64,000 nt of DNA from assembly GCF_965641715.1 (NCBI RefSeq), contig NZ_OZ282453.1, one strand, 5' to 3'. Both the position numbers and the translations under genes were made by a program. This stretch comes from Escherichia coli. GTDB taxonomy: Bacteria > Pseudomonadota > Gammaproteobacteria > Enterobacterales > Enterobacteriaceae. Below the pieces are notes generated by a model. That model worked only from the letters and a program-made list of their open reading frames with translations, was not told where the DNA came from and searched no databases. Shown here piece after piece: positions 8,894 through 57,626 of the stretch; within the stretch, counting starts at the first letter, position 1; each line of letters opens with the position of its first letter.

Positions 8894-8921
8894 AAAAATG
8901 GCGCCGATGGGCGCCATTTTT
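8893..8921. terminator. Bidirectional rho-independent terminator between pdxK and crr
   Basis: Hairpin aaaaatggcgcc-gatg-ggcgccattttt, with A-tract and T-tract on either side, between convergent genes. Confidence 0.65.
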
Positions 8922-11515: not shown

Positions 11516-11849
11516 TGTATTTCCCCAACTTATAGGTTTAGTGTTGTGGAACTAAAGTCTAGCCTGGCGGTTCGACTTTAGCCTGTATTGTTAGCGCCAG
11601 TTTTTAACAGACGCGACGCACGAAGAGCGCAATACAGTCCATTGCTGGCGGGTGTTGACCGCTGACGTTTCGTACGTCATTAAACATTATGCCGCTAAAG
11701 GAAGAATTGAACCAAATCATAAAATCGATTCAGCTTTGGCTTTTCCTGTAACGATTAATTTCGCGCATCAAAATAATTAGTCTGGTTAAATACCAGTTCC
11801 GACAGGCTGAATCAATGCCAGGAGGGGCGAAAGTTTGAAGCAGGCCACA

Positions 11850-11877
11850 AAAAAGCACCTAAAAAGGTGCTTTTTTA
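11850..11877 (-). terminator. Putative rho-independent terminator downstream of cysK
   Basis: Hairpin aaaaagcacc-taaaaa-ggtgctttttt just 3' of the cysK stop. Confidence 0.6.
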
Positions 11878-19781: not shown

Positions 19782-19808
19782 AAAAAAGCGCCTTTAGGGC
19801 GCTTTTTT
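19782..19808. terminator. Hairpin terminator 3' of lysV (bidirectional shape)
   Basis: aaaaaagcgcc-ttta-gggcgctttttt immediately downstream of the tRNA-Lys 3' end. Confidence 0.65.
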
Positions 19809-21884: not shown

Positions 21885-21903
21885 TTAGCGTGTAAAAAGA
21901 TAA

Positions 21904-21933
21904 ACGGCAGGAGATAATATCCTGCCGTTTTTT
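21904..21933 (+). terminator. Rho-independent terminator downstream of gltX
   Basis: Hairpin acggcagg-agataatat-cctgccgt followed by tttttt. Confidence 0.65.
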
Positions 21934-39153: not shown

Positions 39154-40011
39154 TTAGCCCTGAAAACGGGCGCTGTACTCTCCCGGCGTCAGACCAAACT
39201 GACGCCGGAAAACGCGACAAAAATAGTCGCTATCCGGAAAACCGCAACGCTGTGCCACTTCATGAATTGACAGATGATATTTCTGCAAAATCATCCTCGC
39301 CTTCGCCATTCGCACCCAACGCACATACTCGATAAAACGCATCGTTCCATGCTGAGCAAACAGTTTTGACAGATGATTGGGCGTGATATTAAAAAACTGC
39401 GCCACGCTCTCGCGGGTGAGCGGCTGGGCATAATTATCCTGAACCCAGTTACAAATGCTGTGATAGAGAAAATCGCCGCGCGGCTGCGAATTGCCCGGCG
39501 GCATATTCACCACGTTACGGCAAAGATGCAGCAAACTTAACACCAGCGGCTGAATGATATTTTGCTCCAGCGGCGAACGGCTAAGATGGGTGAGGGCGGT
39601 AAGCATCGCTTCACCTTCACCGCGTTGCAGGCTGGGAAGCTGGATCTGGCGAGCAGGATGCAACAACGACGTGGTGCGGCTATCGTAAAACGATAACCCA
39701 AGCCAGGTCGGAGCGAACACCAGGCTTAACAGCATCACCGGTTTGTTGTTGACCGGTAAATTAGCCGCGCGCGCCGGAATAAACAGCATTTCTCCTTCCA
39801 CCAAACGTTGCTGCTTTGCTTCCAGCAGATTGCCGTATTCGCCGCGCAGCACGATATCCAGACGGGGAAAATCAATACATAAACTGCCCACCGGCAACGA
39901 GGCAGGCTGGCTGGCAAACCAGACGCGCCCCAGTAGTTGCGGGTTAAGCACCAGGCCGCTGAACAGATCGGCGAAAAATTGTTGATCGGCGGGCAAGCCT
40001 GGTGCTTTCAT
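39154..40011 (-). CDS. ypdC: AraC-family transcriptional regulator
   Basis: 285-aa ORF with C-terminal AraC-type HTH; stop 2 nt after the fryA stop (convergent). Confidence 0.85.
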   Translation of the reverse strand: MKAPGLPADQQFFADLFSGLVLNPQLLGRVWFASQPASLPVGSLCIDFPRLDIVLRGEYGNLLEAKQQRLVEGEMLFIPARAANLPVNNKPVMLLSLVFAPTWLGLSFYDSRTTSLLHPARQIQLPSLQRGEGEAMLTALTHLSRSPLEQNIIQPLVLSLLHLCRNVVNMPPGNSQPRGDFLYHSICNWVQDNYAQPLTRESVAQFFNITPNHLSKLFAQHGTMRFIEYVRWVRMAKARMILQKYHLSIHEVAQRCGFPDSDYFCRVFRRQFGLTPGEYSARFQG

Positions 40012-44104: not shown

Positions 44105-44132
44105 AAACAGGAGCCTGATGGCTCCTGTTTTT
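44105..44132. terminator. Bidirectional rho-independent terminator between alaC and ypdK
   Basis: Hairpin aaacaggagcc-tgat-ggctcctgttt followed by ttt. Confidence 0.7.
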
Positions 44133-46444: not shown

Positions 46445-46739
46445 AGAAAGTTATCCTGAAAATGGTTCACTGAGAATGTACGATGTTATGGCTGTATTTA
46501 CATATAATTAATCAATATTTACATCGATATAATAAATGACATCTCTTTGTGGTACATAAGAATAGTTCTCTGTGACAGGAAGCATATTCCTACAATTGTA
46601 AGACTAAAATACTTCTTGCGATAATAACTACAACTGTAAGATAACCCTTTCAAAATGACCGTTGCTCTCTGATTTCTCATTTCATGCTCACCCAATATGA
46701 TGGCGGCGTTTTCTAAAACTGTTAAAGAATGAGGTAAGT

Positions 46740-47372
46740 ATGAAACGTTTAATTATGGCTACGATGGTCACAGCTATTCTGGCATCTTCAACTGTATGGG
46801 CTGCTGATAATGCACCGGTAGCGGCACAACAGCAAACTCAGCAAGTTCAGCAAACCCAGAAAACGGCAGCAGCAGAGCGTATCTCTGAACAAGGTTTATA
46901 TGCGATGCGTGACGTGCAGGTAGCGCGCCTGGCTCTGTTTCATGGCGATCCGGAAAAGGCAAAAGAACTGACCAATGAAGCTTCCGCTTTGTTGTCAGAT
47001 GACAGTACCGAATGGGCAAAGTTCGCTAAGCCAGGTAAAAAGACCAATCTCAATGATGACCAATATATTGTCATTAATGCATCTGTCGGAATTTCTGAGA
47101 GTTATGTAGCAACACCCGAAAAAGAAGCCGCGATAAAAATTGCCAATGAAAAAATGGCGAAAGGGGATAAAAAGGGCGCAATGGAAGAGCTTCGCCTGGC
47201 CGGTGTTGGTGTAATGGAAAACCAATATCTGATGCCGCTTAAACAGACTCGTAATGCACTTGCTGATGCGCAGAAACTGCTTGATAAAAAGCAATACTAC
47301 GAGGCAAACCTGGCGCTTAAAGGTGCGGAAGATGGAATCATCGTCGATAGCGAAGCACTGTTTGTGAACTAA
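46740..47372 (+). CDS. yfdX: Periplasmic YfdX-family protein
   Basis: 210-aa ORF with signal peptide [21 protein letters not shown]. Confidence 0.85.
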
Positions 47373-47884
47373 TGCTGACAGGCAGTATATTGAGGTAAAG
47401 GATTTAACTCCCTCCAGCCGACAATTTTTTATGACCACAATACGACAGGTTGTGGTCATAAAATTATTTGGCGCTCGCGGTTCTATAAACTCGCATTTTA
47501 TATTCCTCAAAGTAAACCGCAATAATCCCGTGTCATCACAAATCATTTATTATGTTATGTTTTATGGTACGCTTTAAAAAGCGTAATCATACCCTTGCTT
47601 GTAAATCACCGGCGCTTCTTACAGTTGTAAGAATAACATCACAAATGTCGCGGCTCTCTCTGATTACCGCGAGCCAATATTTATCATATTCTTCTTTTCG
47701 TCCTCACTACTTACCATGCGGAAAGGAATTGGAAGTGGCGATGAAATGATTTTCAGCACTTGATACGGGAATTTAAAAATATCGAGTGCCGCTACGACGA
47801 TATTTTGCGGATTATTTATAGAGGGCGTTATGCCTTAAATAAACGCTAAATTAACACATATTTAATTAACTAATAGGTATTGCT

Positions 47885-49135
47885 ATGTCAACTCCACTTC
47901 AAGGAATTAAAGTTCTCGATTTCACCGGTGTGCAATCTGGCCCATCTTGTACTCAAATGCTGGCCTGGTTTGGCGCTGACGTCATTAAAATTGAACGCCC
48001 CGGCGTTGGTGACGTAACGCGTCACCAGCTGCGAGATATTCCTGATATCGATGCGCTTTACTTCACCATGCTTAACAGTAACAAACGTTCTATTGAGTTA
48101 AATACCAAAACAGCGGAAGGCAAAGAGGTAATGGAAAAGCTGATCCGCGAAGCTGATATCTTAGTCGAGAACTTTCATCCAGGGGCCATTGATCACATGG
48201 GTTTCACCTGGGAGCATATTCAAGAAATCAATCCACGTCTGATTTTTGGTTCGATCAAAGGGTTTGATGAGTGTTCGCCTTATGTGAATGTAAAAGCCTA
48301 TGAAAACGTTGCTCAGGCAGCGGGTGGCGCGGCATCCACTACGGGTTTTTGGGACGGTCCGCCGCTGGTAAGCGCTGCAGCGTTAGGAGACAGCAACACC
48401 GGAATGCATTTGCTGATCGGTTTACTTGCTGCTTTGCTGCATCGCGAAAAAACGGGGCGTGGGCAACGAGTCACCATGTCAATGCAGGATGCCGTATTGA
48501 ACCTTTGCCGCGTGAAATTACGCGACCAGCAGCGTCTCGATAAATTGGGTTATCTGGAAGAATACCCGCAGTATCCGAATGGCACATTTGGTGATGCAGT
48601 TCCCCGCGGAGGTAATGCGGGTGGTGGCGGTCAGCCTGGCTGGATCCTGAAATGTAAAGGTTGGGAAACCGATCCTAACGCCTATATTTATTTCACTATT
48701 CAGGAGCAAAACTGGGAAAACACCTGTAAAGCCATCGGCAAACCAGATTGGATTACCGATCCGGCATACAGTACAGCCCATGCCCGACAGCCACATATTT
48801 TCGATATTTTTGCTGAAATCGAAAAATACACTGTCACTATTGATAAACATGAAGCGGTGGCCTATTTGACTCAATTTGATATTCCTTGTGCACCGGTTTT
48901 AAGTATGAAAGAAATTTCACTTGATCCCTCTTTGCGCCAAAGTGGCAGTGTTGTCGAAGTGGAACAACCGTTGCGTGGAAAATATCTGACAGTTGGTTGT
49001 CCAATGAAATTCTCTGCCTTTACGCCAGATATTAAAGCTGCGCCGCTATTAGGTGAACATACCGCTGCTGTATTGCAGGAGCTGGGTTATAGCGACGATG
49101 AAATTGCTGCAATGAAGCAAAACCACGCCATCTGA
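47885..49135 (+). CDS. frc: Formyl-CoA:oxalate CoA-transferase
   Basis: 416-aa class III CoA-transferase [46 protein letters not shown]... Confidence 0.95.
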
Positions 49136-57384: not shown

Positions 57385-57609
57385 AGATTATTCCCTTTGC
57401 AATGAAGCATCTCCCTTCTCCCTGTAGTAATACAGACATAAGGCATCATCTCATTTTCTCAATAAAAATAAGAAAATTTGAGCTTCCTTTAAGATAATTC
57501 GACAAGTATACCATATAAATAGTCGGCATATATGAAATGTCAACAATAAAATCAGGGATTGTACCGATGATTTATAGTTTCACATTAGCACTATAAGTCT
57601 TCTCACTAA

Positions 57610-57626
57610 TCCTACAGGCGTAAGAA
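57610..57626. promoter_or_regulatory. Candidate EvgA-binding inverted repeat in the evgA-emrK divergent region
   Basis: tcctacaggcgtaagaa; on the other strand TTCTTACGCCTGTAGGA resembles the TTCPyTACA / TGTAPuGAA half-site pattern. Confidence 0.35.

Follow-up and report, generated by a model that had tools for sequence, protein, structure and literature searches.

The spacer between the yfdX and frc genes of Escherichia coli contains a conserved inverted repeat that is slightly favoured, at a probability of roughly 0.55, to be a stem-loop in the 3' untranslated region (3' UTR) of yfdX, where it forms and/or protects the 3' terminus of the message. The repeat is located within a 64,000-nucleotide stretch of E. 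coli DNA (contig NZ_OZ282453.1), referred to here as the window. In the proposed mechanism, the repeat would be transcribed within the yfdX mRNA and would fold into a 14–15-bp stem-loop in the 3' UTR, which would then form and/or protect the end of the message. In E. coli, the hairpin with its UUAUUU tail would probably serve as an intrinsic terminator of a weak, non-canonical type, and in all lineages the hairpin would block 3'-to-5' exonucleases once transcription had stopped at or beyond it. Rho may bring about this stop in Yersinia, and a separate terminator may do so in the most divergent lineage, the orphan contig L028. The predicted outcome is a stable monocistronic yfdX message that is insulated from the frc-oxc-yfdVE unit, which would be expressed from its own EvgA-dependent promoter approximately 150–250 bp further on.

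If this reading is correct, yfdX is a unit of its own that ends at the hairpin and frc-oxc-yfdVE starts at a separate EvgA promoter, which would fix the architecture of the textbook "operon". This matters for the use of yfdX or frc as EvgS/EvgA reporters and for reading their differing expression levels.

Position and structure of the hairpin

The hairpin begins 55 nt past the yfdX stop codon in a spacer of 512 bp with 62% A+T, as expected from the preliminary description, which had reported a perfect 10-bp repeat (atgaccacaa-tacgacagg-ttgtggtcat) at 47431–47459 in the long AT-rich yfdX-frc intergenic region. The sequence and coordinates of this repeat are exactly as reported and the repeat is real, but a 10-bp stem is too short, as perfect complementarity runs four pairs further on each side. 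The perfect stem is composed of 14 pairs with 9 nt between the arms (Table 1), and in the + strand RNA a U47441·G47449 pair becomes the fifteenth and leaves a 7-nt loop. The predicted folding energy is -19.6 kcal/mol for the + strand hairpin (z = -6.5) and -16.4 kcal/mol for the - strand (z = -4.1). In MG1655, the hairpin is found at 2493676–2493712 on the minus strand. RefSeq annotation of identical or near-identical loci gives the gene order yfdX, frc, oxc and has no entry at the hairpin.

Seven perfect inverted repeats with arms of 10 bp or more and loops of 3–12 nt are found in the window, where 0.6 are expected, and no perfect repeat of 14 bp or more occurred in 100 dinucleotide shuffles of the window. 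The inverted repeat is far beyond chance.

Table 1. Features of the yfdX-frc region and related elements in the window (positions are those of the window)
Feature	Position	Strand	Remarks
Perfect repeat	8894–8921		A-run 5', G+C-rich stem, T-run directly 3'
Perfect repeat	11849–11876		A-run 5', G+C-rich stem, T-run directly 3'
Perfect repeat	19782–19808		A-run 5', G+C-rich stem, T-run directly 3'
Perfect repeat	21902–21930		A-run 5', G+C-rich stem, T-run directly 3'
Perfect repeat	39183–39208		CCGGCGTCAG...CTGACGCCGG; G+C-rich, no T-run on either strand
Perfect repeat	44105–44130		A-run 5', G+C-rich stem, T-run directly 3'
EvgA-box-like	46587–46604		1 mismatch; upstream of yfdX
EvgA-box-like	46625–46642		3 mismatches; upstream of yfdX
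yfdX CDS	46740–47372	+	RefSeq annotation of identical or near-identical loci; hairpin in its 3' UTR
5' arm	47427–47440	+	TTTTATGACCACAA; invariant in Yersinia A; sole varying position A47434, which always changes together with 47456; the 10-nt arm first reported is 47431–47440
Loop	47441–47449	+	TACGACAGG; closable to 7 nt via U47441·G47449
3' arm	47450–47463	+	TTGTGGTCATAAAA; pairs with the 5' arm
T-rich tail	47464–47471	+	TTATTTGG; candidate weak U-tract, E. coli only
Small ORF	47431–47577		48 aa; ATG at 47431
Second hairpin	47477–47494		GCGGTTCTATAAACTCGC; weak, 6 bp, bulged; tail ATTTTATATT at 47495–47504
EvgA box	47616–47633		TTCTTACAGTTGTAAGAA; perfect palindrome (0 mismatches) of the frc promoter, 153 bp past the hairpin; marks where the next transcription unit starts; kept in all lineages along with the neighbouring block
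Conserved block	47634–47670		AACATCACAAAT...CTCTCTGATTAC
Conserved block	47688–47715		TTCGTCCTCAC...
Conserved block	47824–47884		Region before the frc start
frc CDS	47885–49135	+	Formyl-CoA transferase, next gene; RefSeq annotation
EvgA-box-like	57609–57626		2 mismatches; evgA-emrK spacer

Conservation in other lineages

Protein look-ups showed that the close YfdX family is narrow, consisting of E. coli, two Yersinia-type lineages and one orphan contig (L028); further candidate lineages were rejected as poor assemblies or chimeras. The order yfdX, long spacer, frc, oxc is kept in both Yersinia-type lineages and in L028, and a homologous hairpin is found 50–65 nt past the yfdX stop in all three. 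In Yersinia alsatica/vastinensis (Yersinia A), which encodes a YfdX 84% identical to that of E. coli, the arms are identical at 28 of 28 positions, the loop is TATGATTGT and the tail is CTCTCTG. The second Yersinia-type lineage (L026/27, YfdX 83% identical) carries ATGGCCACAA with TTGTGGTCAT, which gives a G·U pair on the + strand and a C×A mismatch on the - strand. The hairpin of L028 (YfdX 68% identical) reads GGCCACAACC-ACGGAAC-GGTTGTGGCC, a G-C variant with two extra inner C-G pairs. Its spacing from CCACAA to TTGTGG is 11, versus 9 in E. coli and Yersinia, with the two added bases per side forming the C-G pairs, and it has neither the T/A extension nor the T-rich tail. The loop sequence varies freely among lineages (TATGATTGT, CATGATTGT, CCACGGAACGG).

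The synonymous divergence (dS) from E. coli is 1.1–1.4 for Yersinia and about 2.7 for L028, with four-fold site identity to E. coli of 38–49% overall (43–49% for Yersinia A), and the aligned spacer is 39–47% identical outside of four conserved blocks. The hairpin is one of these four blocks and ranks with the EvgA-box/promoter block as the best conserved. The 28/28 identity of the arms despite saturated synonymous sites indicates that the arms are under functional constraint.

The yfdX-frc-oxc cluster is present in few Yersinia species (L012 and L020–L026, belonging to Yersinia vastinensis/alsatica and a related lineage), and several of the contigs carry IS1 or IS3 transposase genes just upstream of yfdX. 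The Yersinia Frc is 97% identical to that of E. coli, yet dS is approximately 1.2. This pattern suggests that the island was transferred horizontally long ago. A 241-bp scaffold labelled Limosilactobacillus vaginalis DSM 5837 (NZ_GG693475.1) contains the 3' end of E. coli yfdX (100% protein identity) and the first half of the hairpin; its DNA is nearly identical to that of E. coli, and the scaffold is almost certainly E. coli contamination in the assembly.

More distant yfdX genes are found in other arrangements. In four loci (L033 713–838, L043 2633–2755 and L044/L045 2627–2749), hdeA and hdeD (leftward) are followed by yfdX, frc and oxc, and the gap between yfdX and frc, at only about 121–125 nt, is too short to hold an EvgA promoter. 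These loci have another hairpin, located approximately 60 nt past the yfdX stop and approximately 25 nt before the frc ribosome-binding site. These hairpins were considered as homologues, but they share only the common words ACAA/TTGT, GCCAT/ATGGC and GTCAT, a covariance model built from the E. coli-type hairpin misses all of them, and homology is unproven. In Klebsiella-type loci (L029–L032), yfdX is followed not by frc but by a convergent gene for an evgS-like hybrid sensor kinase, with a G+C-rich hairpin lacking a T-run between the two genes. An evgS-like gene beside Klebsiella-type yfdX means that the link between yfdX and an EvgS-type system persists although the genes are arranged differently. 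The more distant yfdX genes (Klebsiella, Buttiauxella and the short-spacer lineages) are followed by strong hairpins that are unrelated and have no T-run, and by analogy this suggests a recurrent functional need for a hairpin after yfdX.

Covariation and strand of the pairing

Of 5,426 complete E. coli genomes, 5,410 contain the yfdX-frc spacer and about 5,400 the hairpin region, which around 20 genomes lack. A census of the 50-mer around the hairpin in approximately 5,404 E. coli genomes identified the exact reference sequence in 4,653. The change G47449A, which converts the loop-closing U·G pair to U-A, was found in 396 genomes, and the compensated double change A47434G + T47456C, which converts A-U to G-C, in 257. 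At most five genomes are compatible with an uncompensated single change at pair 47434/47456; the remaining variants, individually uncounted, amount to approximately 98 genomes. The E. coli-type loci among the metagenome matches listed comprise 34 with the reference sequence, two with the compensated change and none with an uncompensated change. A metagenome scan for copies outside of E. coli, which used the tail base as a filter, yielded at least about 40 E. coli loci and at least about 80 unrelated chance matches, with no new lineage among the matches listed; the filter could not exclude E. coli, as the palindrome also matches the - strand. With 257 compensated genomes against at most five intermediates, the hairpin is a clean natural example of population-scale compensatory evolution in a 3' UTR hairpin.

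Pair counting over eight distinct sequences from four lineages identified 16 pairs with 95.8% of cells paired, compared to 35–50% for slid controls. Three pairs are changed on both sides and 11 of the 16 are invariant, with few independent lineages contributing to these counts. The pair 47434/47456 is found as A-U, G·U and G-C, and the pair 47441/47449 as U·G, U-A and C-G. Compensatory changes of this kind on one defined strand are the mark of a structured RNA. The G·U pairs, at 47434/47456 in L026 and at the loop-closing U·G of E. coli, exist only in the + sense, and both are C×A on the - strand. This pattern points to an element that functions as base-paired RNA on the yfdX-sense strand. Because the two arms change together and in a complementary way, G·U pairs are confined to the + sense, the spacing shifts from 9 to 11 and the loop is free to vary, a base-paired RNA is favoured over an operator in duplex DNA.

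A further helix outside the hairpin (GCCGA/UUGGC in E. coli and CUGCA/UGYAG in Yersinia) was also considered and displays apparent covariation. It was rejected since the native flanks fold no better than shuffled ones, with 0.18–0.41 of flank shuffles at least as good.

The putative yfdX 3' end and the frc promoter

Palindromes resembling the EvgA box (TTCYTACA-N2-TGTARGAA) with no more than three mismatches occur four times in the window, versus 0.44 expected, two of them upstream of yfdX and the perfect one upstream of frc (Table 1). EvgA-binding inverted repeats have been described to induce yfdX and yfdWUVE separately (PMC3720670). With the perfect EvgA box downstream of the hairpin and separate EvgA sites for the two units, the hairpin is assigned to the yfdX 3' UTR, ahead of the frc promoter. 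In addition to the hairpin and the EvgA box, the spacer has three more blocks that are conserved among E. coli, Yersinia and L028, and these three presumably contain the frc core promoter and the 5' UTR with its ribosome-binding site.

The suggestion that the repeat could be an RNA processing or stability element for the frc-oxc transcript was half right. A role in RNA stability or processing is favoured by the covariation, the + strand G·U pairs and the tolerance of spacing; however, the element is part of the yfdX 3' UTR, with the EvgA box and frc promoter block downstream of it.

No 3' end of the yfdX mRNA was found in the Term-seq supplements searched, and yfdX is poorly expressed in standard media. 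The literature searched contained nothing usable on 3' ends, transcription start sites, Hfq or small RNAs (sRNAs) for yfdX. One RNA end (5' or 3') classed as "internal" to yfdX is reported at MG1655 2494302 on the minus strand, approximately 100 nt after the yfdX start (Adams et al. 2021, PMC7815308).

Two other hairpins near the conserved one bear on the same question. The weak second hairpin downstream of the T-rich tail, followed by ATTTTATATT, was considered as the "real" terminator and rejected, as it exhibits uncompensated changes among E. coli strains (K-12, O157, fEC.1, WB61); selection on this structure is improbable. L028 has a canonical terminator-like hairpin (TCCGCCAGGAGCTGCGGG then TTTTATTATG, L028 2036–2053) approximately 20 nt downstream of the conserved hairpin. 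Since this terminator-like hairpin is present, the conserved hairpin is not the sole 3'-end candidate in L028. The downstream hairpin could protect the 3' end by itself, which leaves the retention of the upstream one unaccounted for.

Alternative functions

A purely structural role leaves a further observation unaccounted for, namely that eight of the ten core pairs are frozen at dS 1.1–2.8 and one pair has changed at least three times. A less likely alternative, compatible with the 3'-end role, is that a trans-acting factor reads the stem by its sequence, which would make the hairpin an RNA recognition element of the yfdX 3' UTR. Candidates for this factor or function include an RNA-binding protein (ProQ, Hfq), a ribonuclease or service as the 3' module of a 3'-UTR-derived small RNA. 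The primary sequence is kept beyond what pairing requires, with 11 of 16 pairs invariant in the eight sequences from four lineages at that divergence and the covariation concentrated in the one pair, and L028 keeps the hairpin despite the canonical terminator-like hairpin 20 nt later. The Hfq-binding modules of sRNAs reportedly consist of a U-run, a hairpin and a U-rich tail, an arrangement that the yfdX element resembles. This reading is weakened by the lack of a conserved single-stranded seed, as the loop and both flanks diverge freely, by the lack of an Rfam match and by the lack of any link of yfdX to Hfq, ProQ or sRNAs in the literature searched. There are also only four independent lineages, in which the frozen stems may simply mean that an A/U-rich helix of marginal stability is slow to acquire compensatory changes. 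The stricter proposal of a dedicated recognition hairpin, read by sequence by an RNA-binding protein or ribonuclease, or of a structural module of a 3'-UTR-derived regulatory RNA, is rather more doubtful. If true, it would tie the EvgA acid-response island to post-transcriptional control and would explain why, at saturated synonymous divergence, the eight core pairs are the same in Escherichia, Yersinia and a third lineage of enterobacteria, whereas one pair that the factor would not contact has flipped repeatedly.

It is improbable that the repeat is instead a double-stranded DNA operator, with ATGACCACAA-N9-TTGTGGTCAT as the binding site of a dimeric transcription factor that would control frc and/or yfdX. 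As a long perfect palindrome whose arms are conserved and whose centre varies, the repeat has the look of a classical operator, and it is located in a regulatory spacer 153 bp upstream of an EvgA box. However, a homodimer on independent half-sites would not require the arm changes to be coupled and complementary, as they are in 257 genomes against at most five, and the asymmetric L026 variant is accounted for as a G·U pair in RNA. The distance between the arms is also not fixed, being 9 in E. coli and Yersinia and 11 in L028. The preliminary description had proposed a protein-binding site, with EvgA as one candidate, and EvgA in particular is disfavoured on the same grounds and by the lack of any similarity to the EvgA box at the hairpin with up to three mismatches. 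No second copy of the hairpin was found in the window at up to three mismatches or in E. coli genomes.

A functionless relic, a chance palindrome, a dispersed repeat (REP/BIME, ERIC and the like) or the end of a mobile element is very improbable. The genome search for other copies that had been proposed found the hairpin to be single-copy, with a median of one place per E. coli genome for the 50-mer even at E = 10, where REP/BIME, ERIC/IRU, box C and MITE families have many copies per genome. The covariance model identified no other copy in the window, and Rfam provided no family match, only chance matches to eukaryotic miRNA precursors below threshold (27 bits versus a gathering score of 92). 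None of the phages searched contain the hairpin, and the matches among the plasmids searched were only mislabelled chromosomes or chromosomal segments, with no true plasmid; identity as a repeat family or mobile element was rejected on these results. The hairpin thus neither belongs to a known repeat family nor lacks conservation in related strains. In favour of a relic, the hairpin can be lost. An IS903B element (IS5-like) is inserted in the 5' arm/loop in E. coli O19:H7 strain 730V1 (NZ_CP061764.1 1496920–1497069), where only TACGACAGGTTGTGGTCAT... is left, and this insertion is a natural knock-out. Together with the approximately 20 genomes without the region, it indicates that the hairpin is dispensable for viability. 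The single copy and the conservation of the arms at saturated synonymous divergence, along with the rarity of such repeats in shuffled sequence, largely refute this reading.

The last alternative, a small protein gene to which the repeat is incidental, draws on a mechanical ORF that starts exactly at the 5' arm as first reported, and it can be set aside as next to impossible, since the frame stops after five codons in a divergent Escherichia locus (L011), after four in each of the Yersinia lineages and also too early in E. coli WB61, the ATG is replaced by ACG in L028, and no Shine-Dalgarno sequence precedes the ATG (CGACAATTTTTT).

Comparison with known systems

The hairpin resembles canonical intrinsic terminators in that it lies past a gene on the sense strand, has a T-rich tail in E. 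coli and is marked as terminator-like on the + strand by a loose consensus scan. The absence of a downstream T-run on either strand, as described earlier, holds for the 10-bp stem but not for the 14-bp stem, after which the + strand continues directly into TTATTTGG with five T in eight positions; the - strand tail is AATTGTCG, with no U-tract. The T-rich tail is invariant in nine E. coli strains and is replaced by CTCTCTG in Yersinia and by GTCCTGT in L028. Of the six other perfect repeats in the window with arms of 10 bp or more, five have the classic bidirectional-terminator shape of an A-run, a G+C-rich stem and a T-run, and the polarity of the yfdX hairpin is opposite to these five, with a T-run 5' and an A-run 3' of the hairpin. 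Only four of its 14 pairs are G-C, the stem base consists of six A/U pairs and the loop is 7–9 nt. Its stability is -18 to -19.6 kcal/mol, or -0.49 kcal/mol per nt versus -0.50 to -0.76 for the other window repeats. A conserved, uninterrupted U-tract directly 3' of the stem is not present, and the tail is interrupted in E. coli and unconserved outside of it. The earlier judgement that this is not a canonical intrinsic terminator is thus fair given the stem composition, the reversed A/T polarity and the absence of the T-rich tail from Yersinia and L028; as a terminator, the hairpin is predicted to be weak, with an interrupted U-tract.

The EvgA box is comparable in being a perfect palindrome in the same spacer that is conserved across the same lineages. 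It differs in its architecture, as the 18-bp box has 8-bp arms and a 2-bp centre and the hairpin has 14-bp arms and a 9-nt centre, with no sequence similarity between the two. The hairpin also exhibits pairing covariation, which is not needed by a duplex operator.

Another likeness is provided by the protective 3' stem-loops of Rho-dependent transcripts, which end just after stable stem-loops without U-tracts and have a rut site just downstream (Dar & Sorek 2018, PMC6061677). The yfdX hairpin is similarly stable, is located shortly past a stop codon and lacks a proper U-tract, with no U-rich tail in two lineages and a broken one in E. coli. Over the 80 nt past the hairpin, the C/G ratio is 4–4.75 in Yersinia, where the sequence is strongly C-rich and G-poor, 1.7–2.1 in E. 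coli and 1.0 in L028. The L028 sequence is not C-rich, and a canonical terminator-like hairpin follows there. The yfdX stem sequence is also conserved more strongly than such a role requires.

Hairpins can act as intercistronic stabilisers, as does the REP element in malE-malF. The yfdX hairpin comes after the leading gene of the yfdXWUVE operon, as this was historically defined, and before the other genes, and could shield the upstream part from 3' exonucleases, in keeping with the principle that such hairpins set differential expression within operons (Dar & Sorek 2018, PMC5927463). Unlike the REP elements, it is single-copy, and differential polycistronic decay is not required in E. coli, where the downstream genes have a separate EvgA-dependent promoter. 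Compared with these systems, the hairpin is most likely an ordinary kind of element, a 3' UTR terminator or stabiliser, that is unusual only in its strict sequence conservation, and this conservation is the sole feature that could lead to something new.
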